This document shows, in pieces, positions 13,083-60,856 of a stretch of DNA of 64,000 bases. Positions within the stretch are counted from its first letter, which is position 1. Every line of letters starts with the position of its first letter. Position numbers and translations under genes: made by a program. The notes under the pieces are model-generated. The model was not told the DNA's origin. It saw only the letters and a list, made by a program, of their open reading frames with translations, and made no database searches. This DNA is from an uncultured delta proteobacterium (GTDB lineage Bacteria > Desulfobacterota > Binatia > UBA9968): assembly GCA_963737905.1 (NCBI GenBank), contig CAVTUQ010000012.1, forward strand, positions 140,303 to 204,302, given 5' to 3'.

Positions 13083-13292
13083 TTAGTCGATCAGACTTCT
13101 AAGCAACGTTAGATTTTCCCGATCCTCGGCTAGGTCCGGCCCTTTAGGCGTTTCGAGGCACATGGGGAGACCCCAGAAGCGTTTGTCGTTCACGAGAAAC
13201 CGGAACGCGTCGACGCCGATGTGGCCTTTCCCGATGTGCTCATGACGGTCTACGCGAGAATTGAACTCCTTCTTCGAATCGTTCAGATGGAA
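13083..13292 (-). pseudogene. nfo: Duplicated 3' end of nfo (about 69 codons, diverged allele)
   Basis: FHLNDSKKEFNSRVDRHEHIGKGHIGVDAFRFLVNDKRFWGLPMCLETPKGPDLAEDRENLTLLRSLID* aligns with the C-terminus of the intact gene at 16889-17764. Confidence 0.93.
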
Positions 13293-13341
13293 CCCACAAA
13301 GCGTTCGATCCTGACAAAACGGGCTCACGATAGGGGGAACA

Positions 13342-16173
13342 ATGGTTGTCACCCAAGAACTTTTCGCTGCATACCTGAACTGCCCGACAAAGGCATATCT
13401 CATGAGCTCAGCAATCCCAACGGAGCAGACTAAATTCAGGAGGTGGAAAGCGGATATTCAAAATAGGCTACGACAACAAGGAGTAGAGTTACTTCGAAAA
13501 CAAAGCCGCCTCGAAATCAAAGAAAGTCCTACGGCAGACGATCTTTCAGCGAAAGAGTCTGCTCTTTACGTAAATTGCTCTATTGGATTTGAAGAGCTGA
13601 GATCGGTGATTGACGCTGTTGAAAAAATAGACTTACCAGGCAGAAAGAGTCAATTGCTTCCCTGTCGATGTCAATTAGACAAACGCGCGGAGAGACATGA
13701 AAAGCTCCTATTGGCTTATGATGCCCTATGTCTACAAGCCTTCACAGGAGTACCTATCCGTGCGGGCAAGTTGGTCGACGGGATTAGTAAACGTGCAAAG
13801 AAAGTTCAACTAAATAGCCAGCTCAAAGCGGTGCAGGACCATGTTCGACGACTGACAGAGCTGCTTGGACAAGCAAAGGAACCGCCGCTGATCCTGAACA
13901 GACATTGCGTCGAATGTGAATTCCGAGCGCGGTGTCGTGAGAAGGCTGCGGAGACGGACGATTTGAGCCTCCTTTCCAAAATGAGCCTTAAAGAGCGACA
14001 AAAGTTACAAGGCAAAGGAATCTTCACAGTCCAGCAACTTTCCTACACGTTTAGGCCAAGGAGACGACGCAAAAGCCCCCGTTCAAATGCAGACAATTTC
14101 TCCTATGCCCTAAGAGCACTGGCGATTCGAGAAAATAAAATCCATGTCGCCGGAACGCCCACTTTTACGATTCAAGGCGATGACTGCTTTTTGGACGTGG
14201 AGGGCATTCCCGATTATGGATTCTATTATCTCGCCGGGCTACGGTTTCGTCTCAACGGCCAGCCAATCCAACATTCATTTTGGGCGGGCGACCGTTGCGA
14301 CGAGGAAACTATGTGGAACGACCTAGTCACGAACTTACGTGCGAGTGGGTTTCGCCGAATTATTCATTTCGGAAACTTCGAAAAGGAGTTTCTGATAGCC
14401 ATGACCAAGCGTTATTGTAAGTCAAAGGAACAATCGGAATATGTTGAAAGTTTGGTCCAGCAGACGGTTAACCTTTTGTCGGTAATCTACAGCCGAATCT
14501 ATTTTCCGACGTCTTCGAATAGCCTAAAAGATATTGCTCGCTACCTGGGACACAGATGGCCGGATGAAATTGGAAGCGGCTATGAAGCATTGCTCGCCCG
14601 TCATTACTGGGAAGCCTCAAGAGAGCTGAGCGTCAAGGAAGCCCTCCTGAGTTATAACATCAGCGATTGCGAAGCTCTCCATTTGGTTGCGGACTGCGTC
14701 TCTAAAATGTGTGGTCAATTATCAACCGCGGGACCGAATGACGATTCTAAATTTGTCGATACCAATAAATTGAGGGGATGGGGACCGTTCAAGTTTGGAC
14801 AGCTGAATTGTGCGATACCAGACTTTGAATACATCAATCGCGCCTCTTACTGGGACTATCAGCGCGAGCGAATCGTTTTTCGGTCGCGACGCTTACGCAA
14901 GCGGATTCGTATGCACACCTCTAGTAGACGGATAAAATACCGGGCAAATAAGGCAATCGCTCATCGACGAACTATTGCTTGTCCCTACTGTAAGTCGCGA
15001 GAGATTTATAAGTGGGGACCGAGAAATAAGACGGTCTATGATCTCAAGTTTTCTCCAGCCGGCGTAAAGCGTTGGGTCGTAAATTATCAATTTGATCGGC
15101 ACAAATGCTGGCAATGCAGGAAAACTTTTATGCCTCCAAGGAAACCTTGGACGCGAAGCAAATACGGAGATGGTTTGATACGATACTTAGTTTTTCTCAC
15201 GGTTGACCTGCAAATTTCACAAAGAGCCGCAAAAAAGTTAATAAATCAGTTCTTTGGTTTGGACCTATCAGGGGAATCTGCCGGGAGGTTTAAAAAGACT
15301 GCCGCCGCCTTTTATAAAGTAACTTACAACAAAATATTGCAAAATATAGTCAAGAGTCCCTTGGCCCATGTTGATGAAACGAAGGTTAGTCTCAATGGTC
15401 GAAGTGCTTATGTCTGGGTCTTAGCGAATCACGAAGATGTAGCTTACTTTGTTTCAGAGAGCCGCGAGGGCGCAAAGGTTCAAGATATCCTGAATAAATT
15501 CAAGGGTATCTTGGTTTCTGACTTTTACAGTCTTTACGACTCTTTCGAATGTCCACAGCAAAAATGCCTCATTCACTTGCTGCGGGATTTAAACGATGAT
15601 CTCTTGCGTGAACCATTCAATGAAGAACTTAAGTCGGTAGTCAACGGTTTTGCGTCTTTGGTTAAACCGATCGTTGAAACCGTGGATCGATATGGACTCA
15701 AGTGTCGTTTCATGAAAAAACACAAACGGTCAGTGGGCAGGTTTTACCGTTGGCTGACAAGGACCAATTTTGAGACGGAAGTGGGCGTCGGCTATAAAAA
15801 ACGATTTGAGAAAAATAGACAGAAACTTTTTACTTTCTTGGAATACGATGATGTCCCATGGAACAACAACGCGGCGGAGCATGCCATTAAAGCCTTCGCG
15901 ACGCTCCGACGCGTGTTTGGAGGTAGTAGCACGGAACGTGGCATCCAAGATTATCTTGTTCTGCTCAGCGTGTGTGAGACATGTCGTTATCGAGGAATAA
16001 AGTTTTGGGACTTTTTGTGTTCTGGTTACAAAGACGTGGACGCCTATGTCAAAAGTCAACGGCTTCATAGACGCCGGGTTACCAAGACAAGTATGCTGAA
16101 ATCCAGAAACGCAATTATCTCGCAAAGCGATGGCAATGTATGCCAAGTTGGGGAGGCTTCTGAGCAGTATTAG
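13342..16173 (+). CDS. TM0106-like RecB/Cas4-like domain + DEDD (RNase H-like) exonuclease + zinc ribbon + IS66 DDE transposase fusion (943 aa)
   Basis: YLNCPTK...HCVECEFRARC (four Cys); FLDVEG/SLKDIARYLG/YNISDC; CPYC...CWQC; HVDET, LVSDFYSLY, QKCLIHLLRD, WNNNAAEHAIK; visibly lower GC than the flanks. Confidence 0.88.
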   Translation: MVVTQELFAAYLNCPTKAYLMSSAIPTEQTKFRRWKADIQNRLRQQGVELLRKQSRLEIKESPTADDLSAKESALYVNCSIGFEELRSVIDAVEKIDLPGRKSQLLPCRCQLDKRAERHEKLLLAYDALCLQAFTGVPIRAGKLVDGISKRAKKVQLNSQLKAVQDHVRRLTELLGQAKEPPLILNRHCVECEFRARCREKAAETDDLSLLSKMSLKERQKLQGKGIFTVQQLSYTFRPRRRRKSPRSNADNFSYALRALAIRENKIHVAGTPTFTIQGDDCFLDVEGIPDYGFYYLAGLRFRLNGQPIQHSFWAGDRCDEETMWNDLVTNLRASGFRRIIHFGNFEKEFLIAMTKRYCKSKEQSEYVESLVQQTVNLLSVIYSRIYFPTSSNSLKDIARYLGHRWPDEIGSGYEALLARHYWEASRELSVKEALLSYNISDCEALHLVADCVSKMCGQLSTAGPNDDSKFVDTNKLRGWGPFKFGQLNCAIPDFEYINRASYWDYQRERIVFRSRRLRKRIRMHTSSRRIKYRANKAIAHRRTIACPYCKSREIYKWGPRNKTVYDLKFSPAGVKRWVVNYQFDRHKCWQCRKTFMPPRKPWTRSKYGDGLIRYLVFLTVDLQISQRAAKKLINQFFGLDLSGESAGRFKKTAAAFYKVTYNKILQNIVKSPLAHVDETKVSLNGRSAYVWVLANHEDVAYFVSESREGAKVQDILNKFKGILVSDFYSLYDSFECPQQKCLIHLLRDLNDDLLREPFNEELKSVVNGFASLVKPIVETVDRYGLKCRFMKKHKRSVGRFYRWLTRTNFETEVGVGYKKRFEKNRQKLFTFLEYDDVPWNNNAAEHAIKAFATLRRVFGGSSTERGIQDYLVLLSVCETCRYRGIKFWDFLCSGYKDVDAYVKSQRLHRRRVTKTSMLKSRNAIISQSDGNVCQVGEASEQY

Positions 16174-16233
16174 GATTCCCGATCTTCCGCCGGACCATGC
16201 GCTGTTTCGAGGCGCATCCCGATGCCGATGTGG
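16154..16233 (-). repeat. Second, eroded copy of the nfo 3' end
   Basis: aggcttctgagcagtattagga-ttcccgatcttccgc, gtttcgaggcgcat and gatgccgatgtgg match, in order, agacttctaagcaacgttagattttcccgatcctcggc, gtttcgaggcacat and gacgccgatgtgg of the 13083 copy. Confidence 0.8.
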
Positions 16234-16292
16234 TGATGGAAAGCTGCTTCTGGTATGCTTTTGCTGCTGACGAGAGGGCGAAAAGTCTGTTT

Positions 16293-16520
16293 ATGAATAT
16301 GCCTAGCCATGAAGAATTATATGATCGCTTCGTAAAAGGCCTGGAGTCTAAACACAGAGGAGCCTTTGCTGCCGTTCGCCCGGACGGAAAAGTTATTGTT
16401 GACAAGGACGATGTCAAAGTCGTGGACCGAGCGCTTAAGCAATTTGGCCCCGGTAATTTCGTGTTGTTAAAGGTTGGCAGTAGGGGAGTGGGGAAATGGC
16501 GCAGTCAACGACGGTTGTGA
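16293..16520 (+). CDS. Small DUF5678-like protein
   Basis: MNMPSHEELYDRFVKGLESKHRGAFAAVRPDGKVIVDKDD...FVLLKVG; the ORF-track N-terminus overlaps the eroded nfo copy, so the start is moved to 16293. Confidence 0.65.
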   Translation: MNMPSHEELYDRFVKGLESKHRGAFAAVRPDGKVIVDKDDVKVVDRALKQFGPGNFVLLKVGSRGVGKWRSQRRL

Positions 16521-16861
16521 CGCCCGCATATCCGTATGTCGAGGTCGAGTTTGCCGTCGGCGCTTTTCGTTCTTCAACCGTTCTCGCCTATGTCGATACA
16601 GGCTTTGACGGTTATCTGATTATTCCCAATACACAAACATCGCTTCTTGGTCCGCCACAATTCTTTGCGCCCTGGGAGCTTGGAGATGGGTCGGTCGTGC
16701 AGGCGCAGGAATACCGCGGTGATATCCTGATCTCCGGATTGAGCATAAGCATTCCCGCCCGCATTACACTAATAGGGGAAGAATACCTGTTGGGTCGTGG
16801 CGTTGTAGACCACGTGCGTATGACGTTTGATCATGGCCAGCGGCTGTTGTTGGAAGCGTGA
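16496..16861 (+). CDS. Clan AA (retropepsin-like) aspartic protease
   Basis: AYVDTGFDG catalytic motif, LGDG flap, LLGR motif; 121 aa. Confidence 0.85.
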   Translation: MAQSTTVVTPAYPYVEVEFAVGAFRSSTVLAYVDTGFDGYLIIPNTQTSLLGPPQFFAPWELGDGSVVQAQEYRGDILISGLSISIPARITLIGEEYLLGRGVVDHVRMTFDHGQRLLLEA

Positions 16862-16888
16862 AGCCCCTCCCCTTGGCTCACTGTTTCT

Positions 16889-17764
16889 CTAGTCCTGAAT
16901 CAGGCTCCTCAGCAGCGTTAAGTTTTCTTTATCTTCTTTCAGGTCCGGGCCCTTCGGCGTCTCCAAGCACATGGGTAATCCCCAAAAGCGCTGGTCGTTA
17001 AGCAGTAGACGGAAGGCTTCGACACCGATGTGGCCTTTCCCGATGTGCTCATGACGGTCTACGCGAGAATTAAATTCCTTCTTTGAGTCATTCAAATGAA
17101 AAGCCGCTAGGCGGTCAATGCCGATCTCTTCATCGAAATCCGTGAACGTTCGCTCGTAACCTTCCTTTGTCCGAATGTCATACCCTGCGGCGAAGGCATG
17201 CTCGGTGTCGAAGCAGACTCTGAGCCGATCGCTTTCTTTGGTTGCGTCAAACATTCTAGCGATCTGTTCGAAGCGGTAGCCGAGATTGGAGCCCTGGCCG
17301 GCCGTGATCTCGAGTGTGACCTTCACATTATAGCCGGGGCAGGCCTTGTGGACCTCGTCCAGTGAATGAGCAATGGTCTTTATACCTTCGTCTTCGCCGG
17401 CGCCCACGTGGGAGCCAGGATGAGCGATCAAATTCGACACGCCCAGGATTTCGCACCGTTCCAACTCGTCGATGAAGGCGGCTACCGAACGCTTTCGCAA
17501 AGAACCATCGGGCGAACCCAAATTGAGCAGATAGGAATCATGGGCAATCACGGTGGTGATTCCGGTGGCTTTCCGATTCAAATCAAACAGCTCGATTTCT
17601 TCCTTTGTGCAAGGCTTGGCCGCCCATTGGCGCGACGACTTCGTGAAGATCTGAATCGCGTCGCAATCTACAGTCTTACCCAGGAGCAGGGATTTATCGA
17701 CGCCTCCCGCGATGGACATATGGGCGCCCAGGAGCGGGCGGGGCGGTTTCTCTTTCTGTTTCAT
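16889..17764 (-). CDS. nfo: Endonuclease IV (AP endonuclease 2)
   Basis: GAHMSIAGG, HDSYLLNL, HPGS, LEITAGQG, DTEH, HLNDSK, DRHEHIG, LETP; start at MKQKEK because the upstream extension is a tandem repeat. Confidence 0.96.
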   Translation of the reverse strand: MKQKEKPPRPLLGAHMSIAGGVDKSLLLGKTVDCDAIQIFTKSSRQWAAKPCTKEEIELFDLNRKATGITTVIAHDSYLLNLGSPDGSLRKRSVAAFIDELERCEILGVSNLIAHPGSHVGAGEDEGIKTIAHSLDEVHKACPGYNVKVTLEITAGQGSNLGYRFEQIARMFDATKESDRLRVCFDTEHAFAAGYDIRTKEGYERTFTDFDEEIGIDRLAAFHLNDSKKEFNSRVDRHEHIGKGHIGVEAFRLLLNDQRFWGLPMCLETPKGPDLKEDKENLTLLRSLIQD

Positions 17765-17770
17765 AACATT

Positions 17771-17864
17771 TTGAACGTCTTGAACTTTTTGAACGGTTTG
17801 AACCATTGCTATATTCCGCCCGCGTTCAAACCGTTTAAGCCGTTCAAAGCGTTCAAGTCGTTCA
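17771..17864. repeat. Inverted 9-nt tandem repeat (TTGAACnnn)4 ... (GTTCAAnnn)4-5
   Basis: ttgaacgtc-ttgaacttt-ttgaacggt-ttgaac ... gttcaaacc-gtttaagcc-gttcaaagc-gttcaagtc-gttca. Confidence 0.85.
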
Positions 17865-19472
17865 TCCAGTAAAGTGTCTCTTTTCTACCAGCGGTAGCGA
17901 AATACTGCCGGCGCTTAGCAACTTGTCGTGAAACTCACGGAGATTGAAGCGCGATTCGAGGCGGATCTGCTCCCGGTCCCGCAACCGATTGATGATCGAC
18001 CAACCCAGGGCATAGCCCATCGGCCCGGAGGGCGATTGGCTGTACCAGTTCAAATCTGCGCAGGCTTGAGCGCGCGGGAAATGGAGTTCTCGGACCATCA
18101 ACTCCGCGGCCTCGTCATAGGTCATCCGGCCGGTCTGTGTTTTGACGTCGATGATGATGCGCAGCGCGCGCCAAAGCCGATCTTTGAGCATGACAAACCG
18201 GTGCTCCTTGGTTTTTAGAAAACCTTGCTCCTGCATAAGCTGCTCACAATAGAGTGCCCAGCCTTCGTAGAACACAGAGGACTCGTTCATCAGCCGCGGC
18301 AAGGTGGAGGCTGCGGCGATCGAGTTGGCAACCGAAAACTGCAGGTGATGGCCGGGATAGCTTTCGTGGACCGAAGTATTCTCCAACCCTACCCAGTTGT
18401 GCTCCCTGAGCAAATCATCATCCGTTACCGGTGTAACATAGTAGTAGCCGACCTGATCGGGATCTTTCGGCGAGGGCGATAAATAAGCGGCGAAGGGAAT
18501 CTCATGGCGGCGAAACTCCGGTGTGTGGACGACGTGCAGCTCTTCTTTCGGCGGAAAAGAGACCAGATCCTTTTCTCTGACAAACTCGCGCGCGGATTCC
18601 ATCGCTTTCTGGTAGGCGGAAAGGATTTGATCGATGGGCGGATGGTTGTCCTGGATCTTACGGGCGACCTCTTCGATGTTCTTCCCGGGCGCCAGTTCAT
18701 CCGCGAGAGCTGTGAGTTCTCGCTTCGTCTTGGCAAAAAGCTCTTCACCCAGAGCCAGGAGGCTCTGCGCATCATGATTCAGAAAATGTTTTTTCTTTAG
18801 CAGGAGATTGTAATGTTCCTCGCCGACCGCATAGACGCCTTGGCTCCGCGGCAAAAGCTCGTGCTCGAGAAAGTTCGCGTAGCGATTAATGGCGTGTTTT
18901 GCAGTATCCACCGCCGAGCGAAGCGCTACGGTGTCCCTAACTCCACTTTGAACTTTCGGATGGTCCGGCAGGCTATCGAGAAAGCTCACCCCGCCCTTGG
19001 CGCTCTCGATGGCCATCTCTGTCCAAAGGCGTGGTGGATTAGCATCGGGGCGGCTGAGATTAGCGATGCCTTGCTGGATCACAGCGGGCGTCCGGTTCAG
19101 CCGGTTCAATAGATTTCCAGCCAGATCGTTGGTTGAGCGCACCGTGAGAATATAGATTGCGTCCACTGGCAGATAAGTGTCGGGCCACTTCAGGCGGTAA
19201 TCTTCTTTTGTGTGTTCATAGCGTTGAATGGTTAGACGACCCTCGAGCAGGGCGTAATCGATGACCTGATCTCTGTCGAGCTCTCTGACGCGAATTTGCT
19301 GGAGCGTTTTTAACGACTCTTCTACGAAGATTTTTTCGGCTCGATAGATCTCCTCGGAGTAGTCATTGAGCAGGTGATCGTAGCCTTCGATGCCATAGTA
19401 GATAGCCTCGCTGGGATGAAGCTCAAAATATTTTTTAAAGTAGTCAGTGCAGAAATCGGTGAAAGAAGACAT
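17862..19472 (-). CDS. DUF885 family protein
   Basis: HESYPGHHLQ, FYEGWALYCE, RLWRALRIIID, FHDKLL motifs. Confidence 0.9.
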   Translation of the reverse strand: MSSFTDFCTDYFKKYFELHPSEAIYYGIEGYDHLLNDYSEEIYRAEKIFVEESLKTLQQIRVRELDRDQVIDYALLEGRLTIQRYEHTKEDYRLKWPDTYLPVDAIYILTVRSTNDLAGNLLNRLNRTPAVIQQGIANLSRPDANPPRLWTEMAIESAKGGVSFLDSLPDHPKVQSGVRDTVALRSAVDTAKHAINRYANFLEHELLPRSQGVYAVGEEHYNLLLKKKHFLNHDAQSLLALGEELFAKTKRELTALADELAPGKNIEEVARKIQDNHPPIDQILSAYQKAMESAREFVREKDLVSFPPKEELHVVHTPEFRRHEIPFAAYLSPSPKDPDQVGYYYVTPVTDDDLLREHNWVGLENTSVHESYPGHHLQFSVANSIAAASTLPRLMNESSVFYEGWALYCEQLMQEQGFLKTKEHRFVMLKDRLWRALRIIIDVKTQTGRMTYDEAAELMVRELHFPRAQACADLNWYSQSPSGPMGYALGWSIINRLRDREQIRLESRFNLREFHDKLLSAGSISLPLVEKRHFTG

Positions 19473-29720: not shown

Positions 29721-29727
29721 ATTCGTG

Positions 29728-29760
29728 GTTTCGGGTGTCGGGTTTCAGGTTTCGGGTTTG
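29728..29760. repeat. Heptamer tandem repeat (GGTTTCG)n
   Basis: gtttcgg-gtgtcgg-gtttcag-gtttcgg-gtttg; same unit at 48214-48244. Confidence 0.75.
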
Positions 29761-41480: not shown

Positions 41481-41552
41481 GACCTCCGGAGTCGTGGATG
41501 ATATCTAACAGGCTGCTCAAAAAGATCTGGCCGAAATCGCGTACGGCAGACC

Positions 41553-41611
41553 GCTTATGGCATATAGGGGGAACCCAGGAACCACATGCTACAAGCCATA
41601 GGCCATAGGCC
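41553..41611. repeat. Inverted heptamer repeat (TTATGGC)/(GCCATAG)n
   Basis: gcttatggcatatag ... catgctacaagccataggccataggcc; same family at 48998-49067. Confidence 0.65.
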
Positions 41612-41638
41612 AGCCGACAGTAAGGGGATACTCCTGCC

Positions 41639-42427: not shown

Positions 42428-42444
42428 TTCAAGGGAGGGTAGAG

Positions 42445-43431
42445 ATGAAAACAAGAAAATTAATCATTGGGATATCTGCTTTAGCGGTGGTGTTATCGTT
42501 GCCCGGCCCGCTATTTGCGCAAAAGATGAAGGTTGGCTATTGGACCAGCGGCTTCAGCCTGGGATTCGGCGCCGTCATGGAGCAAATGAAATTCGCCGAA
42601 AAAGAAGGCCTCAACGTCGAATGGGTGAAGTTTGCCGAGGTGAACGGACCAACCCGCGCGATCGTCTCTAACGCGATCGACGTCGCCTTTGCTGCGCCCT
42701 CTACCAATTCCATCGGCATCGCCGCCGACGGCGTCCCGGTCAAGATCGTGCTCGCGACCCAGATCGCTGAGGCTCAAGTCGTTGTTCCCGAGGGTTCGCC
42801 GATCAAAGCCATAACCGATCTCAAAGGCAAGAAAATCGGCATGTCGCCCGCTGGAAGCGCCACCCACGCCATTGCCACCGCAATTCTAGATCACAATTTC
42901 GGTATCAAGCCCAGTGAATACAGCATTGCGCCAGGCAACGAAGCGCAGCTAGCGCAGTTCTTGACCCAGAAAGAAATCGATGCCGGCGTGCTCCGCTCAG
43001 TGACCATCGCTCAAATGGGGGATGCCAAACTCAGGCGGCTTGGGAGTATCGTGGAAGAGTGGAAAAAGCTGACCAAGGGCAACGCACCGCCGATTCTCGC
43101 GGTTACCATCGTATATAGCGATTATCTTCTTAAAAACCAGGATGCAGTCGCTAAATTTATCGCCGCCACGCAAAAGGGTCTCCAGTATGGTTCGAAGAAC
43201 AAGCCGAACGTTGCAGAAATACTTCAGAAGGCGGCGAACATGAATGCCACCGATGCACGCGCTTATGCCGATCAATGGGACGGCGCCTACATCGCGAGCT
43301 TCGAGCCGCAGGACATCGCCTCGCTGAAACGGATGTACGATATCGTTAAAACGGTAGGCGGGGCTACGAAGGATCCGCCGGATGGCGTCTTCGACACCGG
43401 GCCGTATACCCGCTCCAAGCAGATCAAGTAG
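42445..43431 (+). CDS. ABC transporter substrate-binding protein (NitT/TauT)
   Basis: Signal peptide, DLKGKKIG; operonic with the permease and ATPase. Confidence 0.9.
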   Translation: MKTRKLIIGISALAVVLSLPGPLFAQKMKVGYWTSGFSLGFGAVMEQMKFAEKEGLNVEWVKFAEVNGPTRAIVSNAIDVAFAAPSTNSIGIAADGVPVKIVLATQIAEAQVVVPEGSPIKAITDLKGKKIGMSPAGSATHAIATAILDHNFGIKPSEYSIAPGNEAQLAQFLTQKEIDAGVLRSVTIAQMGDAKLRRLGSIVEEWKKLTKGNAPPILAVTIVYSDYLLKNQDAVAKFIAATQKGLQYGSKNKPNVAEILQKAANMNATDARAYADQWDGAYIASFEPQDIASLKRMYDIVKTVGGATKDPPDGVFDTGPYTRSKQIK

Positions 43432-43504
43432 TCCTTGCCGGGATTATTTACGTGAAGCGACGAACAGGGGGCGAGCCCTCCGGATCAAGTGGGGAGGGAC
43501 TAGA

Positions 43505-43534
43505 GTTCAATGTTCAAAGTTCAACGTTCAACGT
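43505..43534. repeat. Heptamer tandem repeat (GTTCAAn)4
   Basis: gttcaat-gttcaaa-gttcaac-gttcaac-gt. Confidence 0.8.
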
Positions 43535-43806
43535 GCGCGGCGCGTGGACTATGATGGCAGCAGGAATGCAAGCCAGGTTTGGGCCAGGAGATCAAGAGGG
43601 TTCCAGGGCGGGCAACGACATGGCCACCGTGATTGACTTGGTTTCAGACTAGTAATAATCGATAGAAGAGCGCCTTTCCATGCGACCTGCTCCCATAGGA
43701 TTTCACTTGTTGTACAAACGCAAGAAGTAATCTCGCCGATATTCCCCGTGTGGGACCGGGAACACGGCGGTGAATGGCTAGCAGAAGCTACTGAATAGGA
43801 GAAAAC

Positions 43807-44698
43807 ATGATTCGAGGAGTATTGTTGCCGATCATCACGCCGTTCGATGAGAAAGTACGGGTTGACGAACAACTCATGCGCCAGCTCGTGGACTTTCATA
43901 TCGGCGCAGGCGTTCAGGGGCTTTTCGTTCTCGGCTCGACGGGCCAAGGGCCGGCGATGACGATAGAAGAACGCAAGCAGGCTGCCGAGATCACCCTTGA
44001 CCAGGCGAAAGCGCGTGTGCCCGTGGTGATCCATATCGGAACGGCGGACGCCGGAAGCACAGTGGAGCTGGCGGAACATGCGGCGGCGCACAAGGCCGAC
44101 GCCGTCGCTATTGTGCCGCCTTACTACTACTCGGATCATACGGAATACGAGATCATCGCCCACTACAAAGCGGTCGCTAAAGCGGTGCCGTTGCCGATCT
44201 ATATTTACGAGAATCCTAAGTACTCGGGTATTTCGATACCTCCCGGATTGGCCTTGCGCATGAAGGAACAGGTGCCTGCCCTCAAAGGGATCAAAGTCGC
44301 TTATGGCCAGGGAGCATTACTCGAGTATGTGAGACTATTGCCGGACGTTTCCGTTTTCACCGGCAACGCGGATTTGTTCGGCCTGGTGCCTTTCGGCCTG
44401 GCAGGGATGATCAATCCGCCGACCAGCTTTGTCCCGGAACTCTGCGTGGAGTTATTCGATGCTCTCGATGGCAAGGACTACGCGCGTGCGGTGGAAGCGC
44501 AGAAAAGAGTCGATACTGCCGTCCGGCTGGTGGCAGGCGCGATTGCGTAAATATGGACGCGTTCCCCTGCAAGAAGTGTTTCGGATGCGCGGCTTTGCGG
44601 TGAAACGTTTTCCAAAATGGGAGACGGAACAAATGCCCAAAGATGAAGTGGCGAAGTTAGAACGCGAACTCAGGGAAGCGGGGATTCTGGGACAGTGA
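43807..44698 (+). CDS. Dihydrodipicolinate synthase-family aldolase (frameshift near 44537)
   Basis: ITPF, LGSTG, PPYYY, YIYENP, GIK; C-terminus continues in another frame (RLRKYGRVPLQE...). Confidence 0.85.
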
Positions 44699-44749
44699 CC
44701 GCGGAGACTTCTCGGATCACAAGCCTACTGATAATTAACGATACATTCG

Positions 44750-45256
44750 ATGAACGACGAACTCGCAAAGCGCTTGGTGCAAGGTCTCAAAGACGCGGCA
44801 ATTAATTTTGTCACCTACTTACCCGAGACCCGGCTCAGCCAAATCGTACCGTTGATCCAACAGGATCCGGAGATCGAACTGATCGCCGCCGCCAGCGAAC
44901 AGGAAGCGGTGACGATCGCTGCTGGCGCGACCCTCGGCGGGAAGCAGGCGGCCGTCTACATGGAAAATACCGGCATCTTTGTATCGAGTTACAGCCTGCT
45001 CACGGTGGGCAAACAACTCGGGGTGCCCATCCTCCTCGTCGTAGGCTATCTGGGTGGCGTTCCCGATCAGCGCAACAGTTTTCTCTACGCCACGATCGGT
45101 AGCCACACGATGCCAGTGCTTCAGGGCTTGGGAATCGAATACATGGTTCTCGAAGACGGTGATAAGCTGGAGGCCAAGATCAAAGACGCGGTTCGCGCCG
45201 CCAACGCATTACGCGGTCCTTTTGCATTGTTATTTGCCGGGGAGTTTTCCATATGA
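44750..45256 (+). CDS. ThDP-dependent decarboxylase alpha subunit (ComD-like)
   Basis: YLPET, EQEAVTIAAGA, MENTG. Confidence 0.82.
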   Translation: MNDELAKRLVQGLKDAAINFVTYLPETRLSQIVPLIQQDPEIELIAAASEQEAVTIAAGATLGGKQAAVYMENTGIFVSSYSLLTVGKQLGVPILLVVGYLGGVPDQRNSFLYATIGSHTMPVLQGLGIEYMVLEDGDKLEAKIKDAVRAANALRGPFALLFAGEFSI

Positions 45257-45855
45257 TTCGTCACCAATGTCTCGAACTGCTCGCCGGCAAAATGAACGAT
45301 CAGCTGGTCGTGACTTCACAGAGCGGCCAGCGCATCGAGTGGTCACATCTATCGAAGCACGAGGGAAATCTGCTGGTCGGAATGATGGGCTGCGCAGTCG
45401 GCGTCGGGATGGGTTTAGCTCTGGCATTACCGCATCGCAAAGTGATCGTCCTCGACTCGGACGGGAGCGTGCTGCTCTCTCTCTTCAATCTCGCGACATT
45501 GGGTAACCTGCGGCCGAAAAATCTGATTATTTATGTATTCGATAACGGCGTTTATAGCGGTAGCCGGATCAGTTATCCTACGGCGACATCTGGAAACACC
45601 GATCTGGAAGCGATGGCGCGTGGAGCGGGGATCAAGAATGCGCACACGATTCGGGATATCGAAGGATTCAAAGGAAAAGGATTAGGCGCGCTGGAGCAAA
45701 GCGAATTAGCGTTGTTTGTTTGCAAAGTTGAAGAGAGTCTCATGCACCGGGAAATTCCCCGTCCGAACACAGACCTCGCGGAGAACAAGTACACATTCGT
45801 GAGATATCTGGAGCGGACGGAAGGGAAACCCATGCCGTTTATCGGCCGGGGCTAA
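45253..45855 (+). CDS. ThDP-dependent decarboxylase beta subunit (ComE-like)
   Basis: MG...GLALA, DSDGS...DN ThDP motif; 4-nt overlap with the alpha gene. Confidence 0.82.
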   Translation: MIRHQCLELLAGKMNDQLVVTSQSGQRIEWSHLSKHEGNLLVGMMGCAVGVGMGLALALPHRKVIVLDSDGSVLLSLFNLATLGNLRPKNLIIYVFDNGVYSGSRISYPTATSGNTDLEAMARGAGIKNAHTIRDIEGFKGKGLGALEQSELALFVCKVEESLMHREIPRPNTDLAENKYTFVRYLERTEGKPMPFIGRG

Positions 45856-45875
45856 ATTGAGTTGGGGAGGTCGAG

Positions 45876-46907
45876 ATGCGAGAGGTTTTAGGAACATTGG
45901 CGGTGGTTGTCGCTGCGGTTTGGATTACCGGCAACCGGACACCCGCGAACGCGCAAGATTTCTACAAAGACAAGACTGTTCGTTTCATCGTCGGTTACTC
46001 TGCCGGAGGTTCATTTGATCTTTACACCCGGGTGATCGCGCGCCATTTCTCCAAGCATGTTCCGGGAAATCCAACCACCGTTGTTGAAAACATGACCGGC
46101 GCCGGCGGGATCATCGCCGCGAATCATATCTATAACCGCGCCGCGCCGGACGGTGTCACCATCGGCGCATGGGCGGCGCCGCTGGTATTGCAGAATGTCA
46201 TGGGCAATGATGCGACAAAATTCGACGGGCGCAGGTTCGGTTATCTCGGCGTTCCGAGTCCTTATGATACCGTCTGCACGTTCAATGAAAAAAGCGGCGT
46301 CGCGAACATGAGCGACTGGATAACTGCCAAACGGCCGATGAAGATCTCGGCCATCGGGCCCGGCACCAGCACGTCGGATATTCCGAAGCTGCTCAAGGCG
46401 GCGCTCAACTTGCCGCTGGAAGTCCTTGACGGCTACAAAGGCGGGTCCGACGCGCGCTTGGCGGTTGAATCGGGAGAAGTCGACGGCTATTGCGGCTCCT
46501 GGCAAACGGTGGAAACCGTCTGGCGGAGTGCTTATGAAAGCGGAAAAATCCGCGCGGTTCTTCAGGCCTCGCTCGAGCCCTATTCAAAGTACAAGGATGT
46601 GCCGCTGGCGATCAATTATGCCAAGACCGATCTCGCGCGCCAGCTTGTCACAGTAGCGGATAGCGCCCACGGCGCGCAGTTTCCCTATACGGTTCCGCCG
46701 GGGCTGCCTAAAGATCGGCTCGAGCTTTTGCAGAAAGCGTTTGTCGAGACGCTAAAAGACCCGGAGTTGCTGGCGGAAGCCAAGAAATCGAAGTTGGATA
46801 TCGAAGTCATCGACGGACCGACGATAGCAAAAAAGTTGGGGCAGCTGTATGATCTTAAGCCCGAGGTTGTGGCGAAGCTTAGAGAAATCTTGTTGCCGAA
46901 AAAATAA
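45876..46907 (+). CDS. TTT (Bug/TctC-like) substrate-binding protein
   Basis: FYKDKTVRFIVGYSAGGSFD, ENMTGAGG, GYKG...GEVDG, PPG. Confidence 0.88.
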   Translation: MREVLGTLAVVVAAVWITGNRTPANAQDFYKDKTVRFIVGYSAGGSFDLYTRVIARHFSKHVPGNPTTVVENMTGAGGIIAANHIYNRAAPDGVTIGAWAAPLVLQNVMGNDATKFDGRRFGYLGVPSPYDTVCTFNEKSGVANMSDWITAKRPMKISAIGPGTSTSDIPKLLKAALNLPLEVLDGYKGGSDARLAVESGEVDGYCGSWQTVETVWRSAYESGKIRAVLQASLEPYSKYKDVPLAINYAKTDLARQLVTVADSAHGAQFPYTVPPGLPKDRLELLQKAFVETLKDPELLAEAKKSKLDIEVIDGPTIAKKLGQLYDLKPEVVAKLREILLPKK

Positions 46908-48211: not shown

Positions 48212-48213
48212 TA

Positions 48214-48244
48214 GGTTTCGGGTTTCTGGTTTCGGGTTTCGAGT
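48214..48244. repeat. Heptamer tandem repeat (GGTTTCG)n
   Basis: ggtttcg-ggtttct-ggtttcg-ggtttcg-agt. Confidence 0.8.
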
Positions 48245-48277
48245 TGGAAATATCGAGTACCTCAAAAAGTAATTCTA

Positions 48278-55609: not shown

Positions 55610-56768
55610 GGCCGGTGACAAAGAATGGCAAGAGATTCTCGAAGCCTCGAAGAAGGAGGGCAAGGTCGTCGTCGCTGGATCGCCGGACCCGGTGATGCGC
55701 AACGAGATCATTCCTAAATTCACGGCGCGCACGGGGATAGCCGTTGAATTCATTGCCGGCCGATCCAGCCAGATCGCTTCACGGGTCGAGACGGAGCGAT
55801 CGGCGGGGATCTTCAGCGTCGATGTGTTCCTATCCGGGCCCGATACGACGGCCATCGACCTGTATGGCAACAAGATGATCGATCCTTTGAAGCCGCTACT
55901 CGTCGCGCCAGAAGTCGTTGATGGCGCGAAGTGGAAAACAGGGAAAGTGTGGTTTTTGGACCCGGAAGAGAGATTCGTGGTTCGCCCTTTTAGCAGCGTC
56001 GCCACGTTGCTTTTCATCAATACGGATCACGTAAAGCCGGAAGAGATGCGATCTTATAAGGATCTTCTCAATCCCAAGTGGAGAGGCAAAATCTCAACAG
56101 AAGATCCCACCACCACCGGGGCCGGGGCGAACATGGCAGCGCGTTTTTATACTCAGCTCGGCGAAGAGTTTGTAAAGGGCCTCTATATCGACCAGAAGCC
56201 GACTCCCACGCGAGAGCGCCGTCAGATGTCGGATTGGTTGGCCCGAGGCACCCAACCCATTTGTCTCAACTGCCGGGAAGATGATGTGCGCCCGTTGGTA
56301 AAAGATGGGTTCAAAATTCTTGAAATCTTCGAGCTGTCCGGCGTGCCGGGAACCATCAATGGTTCCCCGTGGCTATTGTCATTGGCGAATAGAGCGCCGC
56401 ACCCCAAGGCCGCCCAGGTTTTCGCCAACTGGATTCTGTCCAAGGAGGGACTGGAGATCTACGCGCGTGGCTACGGCTCGGCGACCTTGCGCACGGACAT
56501 TAACGAAAGTTACCTTAATCCAGGAAACCTTCCCAAGGCAGGAGTAAAATATTTCGACGATACGGCTTGGCAGTGGATCGTCACCGGCAGGCACGAGTCA
56601 CGAGAAAAAGTCTGGAAGCTACTTGAAAGCGCGCTAGGCGCGCGGTTCAAATTGTTCAAGATGTTCAAGACGTTCAAATCGTTACAATTCGGTTCGTTGA
56701 ACCGCTGGAAAAAATCTGGTGACGTGCGATCTCGGTTTAGGTGTCGTGTTGGGTCTTATACGGCTTGA
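55533..56768 (+). CDS. ABC transporter substrate-binding protein (FbpA/PotD-like; true stop probably near 56637)
   Basis: Signal peptide, KKEGKVVV, DLLNPKWRGK, APHPKAA; the tail FKLFKMFKTFK is translated tandem repeat. Confidence 0.88.
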   Translation: MAKGRCLGWLILLALGLNGSASAQTKAGDKEWQEILEASKKEGKVVVAGSPDPVMRNEIIPKFTARTGIAVEFIAGRSSQIASRVETERSAGIFSVDVFLSGPDTTAIDLYGNKMIDPLKPLLVAPEVVDGAKWKTGKVWFLDPEERFVVRPFSSVATLLFINTDHVKPEEMRSYKDLLNPKWRGKISTEDPTTTGAGANMAARFYTQLGEEFVKGLYIDQKPTPTRERRQMSDWLARGTQPICLNCREDDVRPLVKDGFKILEIFELSGVPGTINGSPWLLSLANRAPHPKAAQVFANWILSKEGLEIYARGYGSATLRTDINESYLNPGNLPKAGVKYFDDTAWQWIVTGRHESREKVWKLLESALGARFKLFKMFKTFKSLQFGSLNRWKKSGDVRSRFRCRVGSYTA

Positions 56769-56797
56769 ACGATTTGAACGGCTGGAACGTTTTGAAC
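56645..56797. repeat. Inverted 9-nt tandem repeat (GTTCAAnnn)4 ... (TTGAACnnn)4
   Basis: gttcaaatt-gttcaagat-gttcaagac-gttcaaatc ... ttgaacgat-ttgaacggc-tggaacgtt-ttgaac. Confidence 0.85.
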
Positions 56798-56823
56798 TGA
56801 TCGGTCAAGAAAGGCAGGCGACT

Positions 56824-57762
56824 ATGGCAGTCAAGAAAAAAATCCGAATCTATTATCGTGCGCCGAGTCACGTTCCTCTCTGGAAGGTAATGGAGGAGGG
56901 CGGCTTTCTCGAGAAGCACGGTTTGGAGATGGACTTTGGTTCTCTGGAAGGCCAGCGCAAGCGCGCCGCCGAGGGGCTGAAATCCGGTGAGCTCGATATC
57001 GTTTCGGGGAATCATCATAACCTCTATGCCCGAAAGGCGCTGAACGGCGATCCCTACGTTCATATCGCTCAGAGCAACAACGCATGGCGCGAAAACTATC
57101 TCGTCATGGGAAACGGCATCAATAGCCTCCAAGATCTCAAAGGCAAGCGCGTCGCGATGGACGATTACGACGGCCACACGGGGCTGAATGTGTGGCTCTA
57201 TTTGCGACAACATGGTTTGGAAGAAGGGCGGGATGTCGAGCTTGTGACTGGCGCTAAGAGGGGTGTGGAACGCGCGAAGGAGGTCATGGACGGCAAATAT
57301 GAGGCGACGTTTATCCGGGCCGTGGATCAGTTGCGGGCACGGAAGATCGGCGCGCGCATCATGGAGTTGCCGACCATGGCGATGATCGAAGGCGTGACCC
57401 TGACGACAACGACGACCTACGTGCAGAATCACGAAGACGAAGCGCGGTCTTTGATCAGGGCGTTGATCGATGCGACCCACTTTTTCAAGACCAAGAAAGC
57501 CGACACGCTGGCCATCATCAAGAAGCACTGCACGGACCTGCTCAAGATGCAGAATGACGAAGAGTGGGACTGTTTTTACAATACCCAAGCGGCTTCGCTC
57601 GAAGCTAAGCCCTATCCGACGCTGGATGCGATCCAGAATGTTTTCGCCCTGGCGCTCAAGCGAGATCCTGAGATCAAGAGCTTCAATCCGCTAGCGCTCT
57701 GGGACCTTCACTATCTGCGGGAGATCGACGACAGCGGGTATATCAACCGGCTGTACGCATGA
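56824..57762 (+). CDS. NMT1-like substrate-binding-fold protein without an obvious signal peptide
   Basis: MAVKKKIRIYYRAPSHVPLW...GFLEKHGL, DLKGKRVA, YLREIDDSGYI. Confidence 0.85.
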   Translation: MAVKKKIRIYYRAPSHVPLWKVMEEGGFLEKHGLEMDFGSLEGQRKRAAEGLKSGELDIVSGNHHNLYARKALNGDPYVHIAQSNNAWRENYLVMGNGINSLQDLKGKRVAMDDYDGHTGLNVWLYLRQHGLEEGRDVELVTGAKRGVERAKEVMDGKYEATFIRAVDQLRARKIGARIMELPTMAMIEGVTLTTTTTYVQNHEDEARSLIRALIDATHFFKTKKADTLAIIKKHCTDLLKMQNDEEWDCFYNTQAASLEAKPYPTLDAIQNVFALALKRDPEIKSFNPLALWDLHYLREIDDSGYINRLYA

Positions 57763-58190
57763 ACACGACTAGAGCTTAATTTTACAACGAAGGTGAAATC
57801 ACTCCCGCGAATGCCAAGTCGAGGCATGGGCGGCGACCGTCCAATGCATCCATTGTCCAGTAAGTAATCTTTTTATGGCGGCTGCGGAAAGGAGGCTGTA
57901 TACTTGAGCCTCTTTCCGTGGCATGCGATCGCAGAACCCGCACAAATCACAATCCTTCTCGTTGACTGGATCTAGAAGACTCCTCTACCCAAAGGAGCCG
58001 CGTGTCTGGCTAATTAGAGGAAGTCTAGACATAAAAGCTCCATCCCGAGATTTTCTGTTCGGAAAGGTCCTAATGCCGAAAGTAAAGATTTGATCCAATT
58101 CGATCGTCAGGTTTTCTCCATGTGTTGTCTTCAAAGCGGGTCAACCGAAATGGATCACGCCCAGGGAATGCGGCTCGGAAAGACGAAGGG

Positions 58191-59734
58191 ATGAAACAGT
58201 CAACTCGAAATTGGCGGGACATCAGTATCTTGAGCTTCCTTGGCAGCGCGTTATTCTATGTCTTTTCTCGGACATCCGCCGACCCGGATCTCTGGGGTCA
58301 TATTAGATTTGGCGAGGATCTTTGGCGGACAGGGAGAATTGTTCGTCAAGACATTTATTCATACCTAACCGGCGATCAGTTATGGATCAATCATGAATGG
58401 CTTTCTGAGGCGATATTCTACGCTGTCTTTGCCGGGGCCGGTTCTACGGGTCTCATTGTTTTCAAGAGTTGTCTTTCACTTCTCATCGTGGGAATCATCT
58501 ACTGCCATTTAAGACAACAAGTTTCAGTTGCTCTGCGGGCGGCATTCCTCGCTGTAGTTTTTACATTGAGTCTGATTCCTTATCTGGCGCCTGTTCGGCC
58601 GCAGGTCTTCACATTTTTAGTCTTTTTGCTCGTTTTGATTATCGTAGAAAGAGCCGACCGAGGGGAGCGTCGATGGCTCTGGTTCGGGCCACCTTTGTTA
58701 GCCGTTGCAGTAAACCTTCATGGGGGAGTGTTAGCTAGCGTGGGTCTGTTCCTCTTGTGGCTAGTGCTGAGTTTATCATCAGCCGCGTTTCGTCAGAGAA
58801 GTTTTGCAGCTATCTATGCTCAATCTAATCGGTCGATCATTTTTGTCGGCGTCATCACCATTGCGGCAATCTTTTTCAACCCTTACGGGATTCAGCTACT
58901 TTTTTTTCTTTCACGCACGGCTACGGTCCCAAGACCTGAAATAGGGGAGTGGCAACCTATCGCCTTAATGAGCGTCGAAGGCTTTGTCTATGTTCTTTTT
59001 CTGGCTCTCGCATTAACGGGCCTAATGTTTAGCCGCAAAGAACGCAGCCCCGTTTTGATCACGCTCTTCGCGTGCACGGCGCTTCTTCCTTTGATCGCCA
59101 GCAGACATATGCCGCTTGTTTGGGTTAACTTGCGCTGTTCTGATAGCTCAGCATGTCGCAGATGTGTGGGACCGAACATCGCCGGTTCTGAGTGTACTAT
59201 GGAAATCATGCGTCGCAAAGCGTCTGGTTTACTGCGGCTTCTTTTATCATAGCGTTAGTCGCTAATCACGGCATCCCTGCCAAATTTCCAATGCATTCGC
59301 ATCGATGGCCAGCAGACGAGTTCCCCGTCAAGGCGGTTGCACTGTTGAAACAAAGTAACGCTGCCGGAAACATTGTGGTTCATTTTGATTGGGGGGAATA
59401 TGTGCTTTGGCATCTAGGCCCGCGGATTAAGGTCTCCATCGACGGCCGCCGCGAAACAGTCTACTCGGAGCGGTCCTATGCGGAAAATCTCCGTTTCACG
59501 AATGGCGTGGGCAATTGGGATGGGATCTTGGAAAAACATGGGACTGATCTCGCGTTCGTCAGCAAAAAATTCCCAGTTTTCAATCTGATGCAGCTCAAGC
59601 CAGGATGGACCCGAGTATATGAGGATCCCTTGAGCGGGCTCTTTGTTCGACGAGGGTCGCCGTTGGAAGAGAAGATCCGGCTCGCCAAAGAACCGGATGT
59701 ATCGTACATGGGTGCGGGATCATGCTTTCCGTGA
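58191..59734 (+). CDS. Multi-pass membrane protein, possibly GT-C-like (frameshifts at about 59120-59290)
   Basis: DPDLWGH, WINHEWL, RPQ, NLHGG, NPYG, EWQP, then WGEY...IDGR in ORF 59192-59734. Confidence 0.7.
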
Positions 59735-59813
59735 CCTGCCGGCGGTTCTCTTTGGCCGATCCTTCCTTCCTTGCCAATTGCGCCCATAACTCTGCTTGAG
59801 AAAGGAGATACCT

Positions 59814-60080
59814 ATGCCTAAGCAACGCATTACTTACGTTGCCCCGGCGACCCATGGACCAATAGAAGATCAGAAAAGTAGAGACTCGACTGTCCATCGC
59901 TACCGTCGTGAAAGGTTTCGCAGTGGAGTCCGTGAGCCTTTGCGGTAGTTATTCGCAACCAACATGAATGGAATGCCTTCTGGAAACGACATTCCTTCAG
60001 AGACGCTAATCCGGCGCTGGCTCCTATTGTGGACTTTGATCTGGGAAATGGTCGTGGGGATCTTCCTCCGTGAAAGCCTG
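59814..60080 (+). pseudogene. Truncated, frameshifted PrcB-family (protease complex subunit) gene
   Basis: AAAGGAG RBS; across shifts reads ...RSGVREPL.VVIRNQHEWNAFWKRH...APIVDFD..MVVGIFL.EKP, the typical PrcB_C pattern. Confidence 0.6.
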
Positions 60081-60401
60081 GAGGGAAGTAAGTGCTGCCC
60101 GTCCCGTCCGAGGCAACCAGATTAAAACTCCCGCCCTCAGAGACTGCAAAGTTCACGCCGGCATTGGCACTATTGTTATACAGAGCCGCATTCAAAGAAG
60201 CCGCAGCCCCTAACACCCAAAAGTTGTCAACCGTCGTGTTCCAGATCCCACCGTTGTCACTGGGTCGAAGTTCAAGCTTGGTCTTCCCACTTCCAGGCAA
60301 GATGCTCATTGTAAAGGTAGGAGCTAACGATCCCTCTGGACTAAGCAACTTGTCACTCCGGCCAACCGGGTCCCTCAGCTTGCCATCGAAACTCAACGCG
60401 A
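60075..60401 (-). repeat. Diverged copy of the C-terminal domain of the S8 protease (61141-61476)
   Basis: SFDGKLRDPVGRSD...[19 protein letters not shown]...[13 protein letters not shown] versus [14 protein letters not shown]...[19 protein letters not shown]...[13 protein letters not shown]. Confidence 0.92.
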
Positions 60402-60856
60402 CGTTTATCCGCGCCGTGGATCAGTTGCGGGCACGGAAGATCGGCGCGCGCATCATGGAGTTGCCGACCATGGCGATGATCGAAGGCGTGACCCTGACGA
60501 CAACGACGACCTACGTGCAGAATCACGAAGACGAAACGCGGTCTTTGATCAGGGCGTTGATCGATGCGACCCACTTTTTCAAGACCAAGAAAGCCGACAC
60601 GCTGGCCATCATCAAGAAGCACTGCACGGACCTGCTCAAGATGCAGAATGACGAAGAGTGGGACTGTTTTTACAATACCCAAGCGGCTTCGCTCGAAGCT
60701 AAGCCCAATCCGACGCTGGATGCGATCCAGAATGTTTTCGCCCTGGCGCTCAAGCGAGATCCAGAGATCAAGAACTTCAATCCGCTAGCGCTCTGGGACC
60801 TTCACTACCTGCGGGAGATCGACGACAGCGGTTATATCAAGCGGCTCTACGGGTGA
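60398..60856 (+). pseudogene. Near-identical duplicate of the 3' half of the gene at 56824-57762
   Basis: Matches 57304-57762 with about 11 substitutions counted by eye, mostly near the stop. Confidence 0.95.

Follow-up and report, generated by a model that had tools for sequence, protein, structure and literature searches.

The 3' end of nfo, a DNA-repair gene of the endonuclease IV family, is a genuine recurrent hotspot for small selfish modules that carry no tyrosine or serine integrase, and as a target site it is of a known kind. This study was concerned with a 64,000-nucleotide stretch of DNA (the window) from an uncultured delta proteobacterium of the Binatia, in which partial copies of gene 3' ends (tails) lie beyond the genes themselves with extra DNA (cargo) in between. 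All coordinates are positions in the window, which is C12:140303-204302 of the source genome G000, a 46-contig bin with 6.7% contamination; the end of the window is the end of the contig. Repeat pairs were obtained by self-BLASTN of the window and by repeat finding. As the initial annotation had held for all pairs, every downstream copy found by self-BLASTN has the orientation of its host gene and lies 3' of it. The same annotation had read four such cases (at nfo, at tRNA-Val and at two genes for substrate-binding proteins, SBP1 and SBP2) as a single system with six copies of the hosts' own 3' ends. In our analysis the pattern of tail copies downstream of genes is mostly real and has several different causes, and only the nfo tail stands out as a recurrent landing site. 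We know of no description of nfo as an integration site, a point at which no literature search was aimed.

The window holds the single full-length nfo of G000, and from the ancestral downstream neighbour of nfo, a VIT1-family gene, the locus runs through F1, module T, F2 and module P to nfo itself (Table 1). F1 matches the tail of the gene (16899-17101 against 13090-13292) at 79% over 203 nt (E 1e-44), and at 88.7% over 71 amino acids; it also holds a 47-nt block identical to the gene-proximal tail copy. The copy that had been reported at 13083 is thus real. The VIT1 gene directly follows nfo at L004, L005, L007, L008 and L010, which are empty sites (L010 is an unpublished genome, and the point stands without it). 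Because F1 adjoins this gene, F1 is taken to be the displaced original tail, and the tail now on nfo to have come with the inserted DNA. The other proposed copy, at 16154, is at chance level in pairwise local alignment (16050-16260 against the nfo tail, score 18), but the multiple alignment identifies it as the decayed copy F2: it lines up with 88 nt of well-preserved tail sequence at this junction in G001, a genome of the same genus, and with the equivalent junction in three metagenome contigs. At the same T/P junction in L031 there is an nfo-tail tblastn match of 40%. F2 overlaps two open reading frames (ORFs), that of T at its 3' end and orf107 at its 5' end. Pfam, NCBIfam and PHROGs were searched with the cargo ORFs. 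In module P, orf121 has a weak match to clan AA aspartic proteases (TIGR03698, 3.7e-8, below the cut-off); the module had no Pfam, PHROG or PADLOC match, and orf107 no usable ESM Atlas match.

Copies of the nfo tail recur in related genomes, with different cargo. Among the 41 nearest genomes, all have nfo and three have an extra match to its tail only. Across the order, nfo was found in 113 of 123 genomes and an extra tail-only match in five of these 113 (G000, G001, G003, G109 and G066), which represent four genera; the other double nfo matches in the order are split genes or second full-length copies. Two genomes of the same genus carry parts of the window cargo: G001 has module P only, as a homolog of 90% nucleotide identity next to nfo, and G002 has orf107 alone directly after nfo, followed by the contig end. 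In G003 the cargo is a PIN and MazE-type (VapBC-like) pair without T. In G109 a T homolog (69% amino acid identity over 924 residues) is convergent with nfo and is followed by the tail copy. Variation of cargo among relatives, which had been named as a check, is therefore found at nfo, in the form of T, P and the PIN and MazE-type pair. The case in G066 is a perfect 1053-nt inverted duplication of the nfo tail and a TetR gene, its copies 34 kb apart (C2:2009630-2010682 and C2:2045023-2046075, on loci L087:1631-2683 and L088:17024-18076). No nfo-tail fragment was found outside the order in a 401-genome phylum sample. Second matches in three genomes of that sample (G179, G364 and G450) were rejected as paralogs, since they lie inside long open frames on other contigs.

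Metagenome contigs extend the series. Of 15 close T homologs on such contigs (at least 63% amino acid identity), 12 are from the nfo locus, and for 10 of these the contig includes some sequence of nfo; the remaining three are elsewhere (L022, L027 and L044). The order of the parts is permuted from locus to locus. L023 has the arrangement of the window (F, T, P, nfo), L030 has F, T and nfo, and L036 has the neighbour, a decayed F, P, F and T. In L032 the order is the 3' part of T, P, F and the 5' part of T, and these two parts have identities of 86% and 94% to the window. Public soil runs were compared as contigs, with at most 0.43 of the sampled words present in any one run. These contigs include a joint from the neighbour to P that skips T and a joint from nfo to F1, an empty site, with sides of only 27-33 nt and hence weak support; a joint 12751>16932 (side 20) and stretches without cover were not used as evidence. 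The comparison of orthologous loci proposed earlier thus yields both empty and filled sites at nfo, while at tRNA-Val an empty site was not definable in six relatives, whose sequence downstream of the gene shares nothing with window positions 37420-46000. Likewise, the proposal that protein-gene termini act as repeated docking sites holds for the nfo tail, where cargo is variable, order is permuted and empty sites exist, but it is not common to the four cases in the window.

Table 1. Positions in the window of the genes, cargo modules and tail copies discussed in the text.
Feature	Position	Strand	Evidence or remark
VIT1-family gene, ancestral downstream neighbour of nfo	12333-13061	+	Pfam PF01988
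F1, displaced nfo-tail copy (codons 233-303)	13090-13292	-	adjoins ancestral downstream neighbour
Module T, 943-aa fusion ORF	13342-16173	+	one copy in G000
F2, decayed copy of last ~85 nt of nfo	~16150-16235	-	between modules T and P; multiple alignment with relatives
Module P: orf107 (16197-16520) and orf121 (16496-16861)	16197-16861	+	convergent with nfo
nfo, endonuclease IV family (AP_endonuc_2)	16889-17806	-	intact, 305 aa; Pfam PF01261 2e-54, full-length match
Frameshifted SBP paralog remnant	34304-34590	-	BLASTN against genome; translation
SBP1, ABC_sub_bind (PF04392) substrate-binding protein	35858-36838	-	Pfam 8e-56
tRNA-Val(CAC)	37343-37419	+	intact; ARAGORN, Rfam RF00005 73.8 bits
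tRNA-Val module 1: tailspike-like beta-helix protein (37632-39110) and orf157 (39100-39573)	37632-39573	-	PF12708; PHROG tail-spike, best 6e-17
tRNA-Val copy 1, anticodon loop to CCA, 1-nt deletion	39569-39620	+	repeat finding, self-BLASTN
tRNA-Val module 2: endolysin-like glycoside hydrolase (Rv2525c-like) and SH3 domain	39682-40560	+	PF08924, PF08239; PHROG endolysin 1e-16
tRNA-Val copy 2, decayed, 10-nt insertion	40567-40640	+	repeat finding
SBP2, NMT1-type substrate-binding protein	56719-57762	+	Pfam PF09084
SBP2 gene-proximal repeat	57304-57765	+	last 459 nt of gene (57304-57762) through stop codon
SBP2 cargo: orf376 (58122-59252, +), orf180 (59192-59734, +), unit A	57766-60397	.	ORFs in no known family
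Displaced SBP2 tail copy	60398-60859	+	adjoins ancestral downstream genes

The nfo tail copies give clues to how they arose. Each tail pair contains one exact block amid repeats that are otherwise diverged (77-90% identical); the block measures 32 nt in both G001 and G003, 47 nt in the window and 69 nt in G109. An exact block flanked by diverged sequence fits a crossover between the host tail and a tail borne by the incoming element. In addition, G003, G109 and G066 have unrelated cargoes, and yet their displaced fragments all begin at one nfo position, codon ~266, to within ~12 nt; in G066 it is the edge of the inverted duplication that falls there. Another start point, codon 233, is common to F1 and the fragments in L032 and L036. 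Judged from sequence comparison, a common breakpoint favours a site-specific process over random circularisation.

Three observations concern the surroundings of nfo. First, in relatives G008, G011, G025, G027, G028, G029 and G034 nfo and tRNA-Val are divergent and 2-6 kb apart; in the window the distance is 20 kb, so that ~15 kb, the SBP1 region included, has come in between them as several blocks. Secondly, short inverted matches link the 5' region and upstream spacer of nfo with the 5' region of SBP2 (17764-17804 with 56684-56644, and 17824-17861 with 56797-56760). Third, contigs of public runs pile up at 17723-17900, between nfo and the upstream 536-aa gene, with a summed depth of 124 in run X1 and many loose ends at 17770-17864. 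The last two observations suggest a short dispersed intergenic repeat at 17723-17900 and 56644-56797.

The largest cargo gene at nfo, module T, belongs to a working gene family. Residues 4-451 match the TM0106-family RecB/Cas4-like nucleases (TIGR03491, 175 bits) and residues 537-893 the IS66-family transposases (NF033517, 186 bits against a cut-off of 180; PF03050, 1e-30); the Pfam matches are PF01930, PF13482 and PF03050, and an RNase H-like domain and a zinc finger are also present. In 11 family members (37-72% identical to the window protein), four Cas4-type cysteines, a D-x-E motif, four zinc-finger cysteines and the DDE-type acidic residues are invariant. Homologs are numerous: 1771 of 8000 scored candidates had E values of at most 1e-3, they come from several phyla, and many are on contigs of 3-6 kb. 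Distant homologs form diverged tandem arrays at some metagenome loci. Loci of the family were seen at L020-L053 and L086. T was not found in the 40 nearest relatives apart from two remote partial matches, and the scan of public genome contigs gave two distant loci only. Our literature search found no account of fusions of a RecB/Cas4-like nuclease with an IS66 transposase. The fusion brings into view a large, apparently unstudied family in many phyla, in which a Cas4/RecB-like nuclease, an RNase H-like domain and an IS66-type transposase are joined in a protein of ~920 amino acids.

Compared with insertion sequences of the IS66 family, the C-terminal half of T is alike in its DDE_Tnp_IS66 and NF033517 matches above the cut-off and in its zinc finger, which is typical of IS66-family transposases. 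It differs in the fused TM0106-type RecB/Cas4-like nuclease of ~460 amino acids and in having no companions like tnpA or tnpB. In addition, G000 has a single copy of T and not the several copies expected of such an element. T loci are homologous from ~8 nt ahead of the ATG to a point in the final ~100 nt of the ORF. No flanking inverted repeats were seen by self-BLASTN of 13 loci and flank comparison, which could miss repeats of 15-25 bp; a comparison of L034 with L035 placed a possible left boundary ~245 nt ahead of the ATG, with no right end. Long flanking direct repeats were present at three of three nfo-linked T loci tested and at none of seven elsewhere (L020, L021, L022, L027, L034, L035 and L037); L033 was untestable in this comparison. 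Therefore, the long duplication belongs to the nfo site and not to T. A tRNA in L033 was considered as a tail site for T and rejected, because it lies upstream of T and is divergent.

The second case, at tRNA-Val, is real and has a different cargo. The gene matches the first copy at 94% over 53 nt (37375-37427 against 39569-39620), and the region of this copy matches the second at 85% (39551-39589 against 40567-40605). Both copies that had been placed at 39569 and 40585 are real, though the second is decayed and is located at 40567-40640. The part of a tRNA gene from the anticodon loop to CCA is the usual attachment segment. A 19-nt flank that is not derived from the tRNA precedes copy 1 and is shared by copy 2; therefore, both entries were by related elements. 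With tail-spike and endolysin PHROG matches between the tRNA and its 3' copies, the cargo is made up of decayed prophage remnants. The sequence downstream of tRNA-Val differs in all six relatives examined, which makes this a variable site. An Rfam scan of the window found tRNA-Val only. The 187 nt directly after the gene (37439-37625) have an 88% copy at C22:117992-118179, with no tRNA nearby and no Rfam match.

Four of the 44 tRNA genes of G000 have a downstream 3' copy. The other three islands are at Arg-TCG (C15:26689-31722), Ser-CGA (C22:96824-106539) and Ala-CGC (C25:1045-12651), with 3' copies 5-11.5 kb downstream. The Ser island contains a terminase remnant and a GtrII gene, and no recombinase domain was found in the largest ORFs of these three islands.

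The third case, at SBP1, does not stand as a copy of the host's own 3' end. The gene and the fragment at 34304 match at 79% over 118 nt (35898-36013 against 34343-34457, E 3e-20), and the family to which they belong is widespread in the genome: tblastn matches occur on more than 20 contigs of G000, many in tandem arrays and many fragmented, frameshifted or truncated. PF04392 genes have expanded to very high numbers in G000, and long arrays of them were noted at C29:77526-99763, C27:2700-21950, C7:401841-412620 and other places. Over their last ~155 nt, paralogs in many genomes of the family show 78-83% identity. BLASTN of the fragment region against the genome gave 62 matches; the adjacent SBP1 scores 96.9 bits, whereas six other paralog tails score 103-123 bits. 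A match of 266 bits (80% over 320 nt), which takes in both the fragment and its downstream flank, lies at C32:61656-61971, and the flank at 34131-34300 is repeated on C32 and C8. Since other paralogs score higher and the fragment is frameshifted, its derivation from the tail of SBP1 was ruled out. The fragment is a pseudogene remnant of one of the many SBP paralogs, which share a nucleotide-conserved C-terminal block.

The fourth case, the SBP2 copy annotated at 60398, is real, and of recent appearance. The two tail copies (57304-57765 and 60398-60859) are 97.6% identical over 462 nt; nine differences fall in the final 162 nt and two in the 300 nt before them. In the same-genus genome G002, the SBP gene is followed by ~1.0 kb and then by a homolog of 61540-63949, without a tail copy, and homologs of the cargo are at another locus on another contig. 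From the arrangement in G002 it follows that SBP2 gained a new tail and ~2.6 kb of cargo, as at nfo. The cargo had no PADLOC or PHROG match, and its unit A (60075-60401) is a partial copy of a repeat that is 420 nt long and codes on the minus strand. Positions 60617-63998 overlap C19:1-4223 at 96%, and C19 begins inside the SBP2 tail; this overlap of the end of C12 with the start of C19 reflects either mixing of strains in the bin or a true duplicate. The start of C19 has three tandem 420-nt coding units of the minus-strand repeat-domain protein, and the window has one. The SBP2 case may have arisen recently, when ~3.1 kb from a very close relative entered by a single (Campbell-type) crossover, or it may be an assembly effect at strain level.

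Whether tails are copied downstream more often than other gene parts was tested genome-wide with crude ORF calls. For 4199 genes of at least 600 nt, orphan copies of low-copy 150-nt segments from the head, middle and tail were counted within 10 kb on either side. Genes with orphan tail copies numbered 17 downstream and 6 upstream; the corresponding numbers were 10 and 9 for heads and 9 and 4 for middles. Nearly all copies were in the orientation of the gene. About 10 of the 16 downstream tail cases examined reach to within 10 nt of the stop codon (the seventeenth, a whole-gene duplication, was left out of this detailed look), and the hosts are diverse. SBP2 was classed as a paralog by the filter, so the count of 17 is conservative. 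The enrichment that had been predicted for same-orientation downstream tails is therefore present in that they form the largest class (17 genes against 4-10), and the excess is real but modest. An all-against-all BLASTP comparison of 110 cargo ORFs from 19 islands found one small ORF in common and no shared recombinase. Elsewhere in the window, short runs of a GGTTTCGGGT-type unit stand directly after two genes (29726-29757 and 48213-48258, by repeat finding).

Taken together, these results keep the individual copies and separate their causes. Five of the six proposed copies of a host's own 3' end stand (two at nfo, two at tRNA-Val and one at SBP2), the one at 34304 being paralog debris, and the cargo of about 0.6-3 kb that had been described was measured at 0.7-2.9 kb. 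The view that one architecture occurs four times is not upheld, since the cases include paralog debris, decayed prophage at a tRNA gene and a recent duplication of 97.6% identity, and the cargoes have no protein family in common. More generally, a downstream tail copy may be an integration scar, a piece of paralog debris or a recent duplication; these are at least three ordinary origins, to be told apart before a common mechanism is claimed. The remark that tyrosine and serine recombinases are absent is correct in that neither PF00589 nor PF00239 has a match on contig C12, but the nfo cargo does contain an ORF of a DDE transposase family, in module T, which that annotation had overlooked. In the rest of G000 there are 12 PF00589 matches and none to PF00239. 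The nfo modules seen in the window, at 12 metagenome loci and in G001, G003 and G109 all proved to be without a tyrosine or serine recombinase.

On balance, we consider it probable that the nfo modules result from a site-specific recombinase that was lost or acts in trans, and that the four cases in the window are of mixed origin. The incoming element would carry its own version of the target 3' end, so that nfo and tRNA-Val are kept whole while the old tail moves downstream. Several such entries, with decay after them, would leave tandem modules that lack a recombinase and have a tail copy behind each, and the recombinase missing from the modules would have been lost or would act in trans. 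The surviving cargo is selfish or phage-derived, as represented by the IS66-type fusion gene, the two-ORF module, the VapBC-like pair of another genus, and the tailspike and endolysin genes. The sequences themselves show the repeats, the intact targets, empty and filled sites, permuted orders and the lack of tyrosine and serine recombinases; the order of events and the nature of the recombinase are what we infer here.

Several points weigh against a lost or trans-acting recombinase. First, PF00589 has no match in any of the four tRNA-bounded islands of G000 or within 3 kb of them, which is unusual if integrases are the agents. Secondly, limited searches of the 123 genomes of the order and the 401-genome phylum sample gave no integrase-bearing element with specificity for the nfo tail, and a degenerate nfo-tail motif had no match in viral contigs. 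Third, the fragment starts at codon ~266 point to a specific cut site but do not say whose it is. In addition, every nfo-linked T module seen has T intact and conserved, as is to be expected of an autonomous element more than of random debris. Lastly, the genome-wide test, with its crude ORF calls, gives only a modest signal.

A possible alternative, which we hold to be improbable, is RecA cycling, one of the two routes named in the initial annotation: cargo between two tail copies would loop out as a circle with one tail copy and enter a relative by a single crossover in the conserved tail, so that modules accrete without an integrase. This would agree with the lack of tyrosine and serine recombinases in the nfo modules and in the four tRNA-bounded islands, and the exact blocks of 32-69 nt are long enough for RecA crossovers. 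The near-identical SBP2 pair is as such a process would leave it. The split T of L032 is also as expected of a circle or a tandem, and the unequal identities of its two parts suggest separate acquisitions. The downstream tails, moreover, form the largest orphan class, 17 against 9 in the mirror class of upstream heads, but this excess is not statistically strong. Random circularisation predicts random fragment starts, whereas three unrelated cargoes in three genera begin at the same nfo position. Outside the exact block, the repeats of 77-80% identity are a poor substrate for RecA. In the contigs of public runs no circular junction was seen, which is a weak test because contigs only were available.

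A broader form of the idea is that conserved gene tails in this soil lineage are docking sites that require no recombinase, with modules accreting behind housekeeping genes and tRNAs without any integrase. If true, it would explain why integrases are missing both from the nfo modules and from the four tRNA-bounded islands; we regard it as doubtful.

It is unlikely that T itself is the agent, that is, a one-gene element of ~3 kb that inserts site-specifically in the nfo tail and brings a replacement tail, with P and the VapBC-like pair riding along. In L028-L030 and G109 the module has no ORF besides T, which is bounded there by the nfo tail and F, and 12 of the 15 close homologs of T are in the nfo locus. 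It is intact and constrained across genera, retaining 69% amino acid identity and the invariant columns listed above, and it belongs to a large family with many members on 3-6 kb contigs, as is expected of repeated mobile DNA. Set against this, flanking direct repeats are confined to the nfo-linked loci (three of three, against none of seven), and the homology between loci is bounded by the ORF itself, from ~8 nt before the ATG to inside its 3' end, with no terminal inverted repeats seen. Tail copies also occur without T in G003 and G001, and DDE transposases produce target duplications of a few bp. That strain variants were joined in tandem by the assembly is very unlikely, for while the composition of the bin and the overlap of C19 with the SBP2 tail leave room for it, the nfo layout recurs in independent assemblies (L023 in the same order, a 3874-nt X1 contig that spans 13500-17110, G001 and G109), and the nfo and tRNA pairs, at 79-94% identity, are too diverged for k-mer collapse, so that only SBP2 is exposed.

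If the nfo tail is proven to be a site-specific hotspot, it would be a new protein-gene attachment site. The nfo loci, some empty and others with one module, two modules or a permuted order, would then offer a clean natural series in which the movement of integrase-less remnants can be studied.

The arrangement at nfo has close counterparts among known systems. Accretion of cis-mobilizable elements (CIMEs) is exemplified by the ICESt1/ICESt3 family at fda in Streptococcus thermophilus and by tandems of integrative mobilizable and integrative conjugative elements at tRNA genes. In the CIME pattern as outlined in PMC5704250, repeats of the target-gene tail bound modules that have lost their integration genes, and these form a tandem stack in which the module beside the gene is the newest. 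The window is alike in several respects. First, direct repeats with the target 3' end bound the modules (the 203-nt nfo pair and a decayed third copy, and the two tRNA-Val 3' copies). Secondly, the target is intact, as judged by the 305-aa frame of nfo and by ARAGORN and Rfam for tRNA-Val. Third, the modules contain no tyrosine or serine integration genes and no transfer genes, although module T has a gene of a DDE transposase family. Lastly, several modules stand in tandem, the newest presumably beside the gene. The window differs in that limited searches found no integrase-bearing relative with the same attachment specificity, and in that its modules are very small (0.7-3 kb) with no conjugation genes seen. 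Thus, the nfo locus works like a CIME series in all but the integrase-bearing relative.

Tycheposon islands of Prochlorococcus are described as stacked integrations with partial tRNAs and degenerate remnants (preprint 10.1101/2020.12.28.424599). They resemble the window in that successive integrations at one site push older elements further in, leaving partial tRNAs and remnants behind. They are defined by tyrosine recombinases, however, of which there are none here, and in the present case the cargo is phage debris and the host a soil bacterium.

An integron-like accretion system had also been proposed for the window. The likeness lies in small modules of one or two genes, toxin-antitoxin pairs among them, that are added serially at a fixed site. 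However, there is no IntI (no PF00589 match on the contig), and the boundaries align with the nfo coding tail or the tRNA 3' end and not with attC, for which no separate search was made. In addition, the modules are convergent to the host gene and have no common recombination site besides the gene tail. The arrangement in the window is therefore neither an integron nor a new integron-like kind, and its architecture matches the published pattern of CIMEs and tandem accretion.

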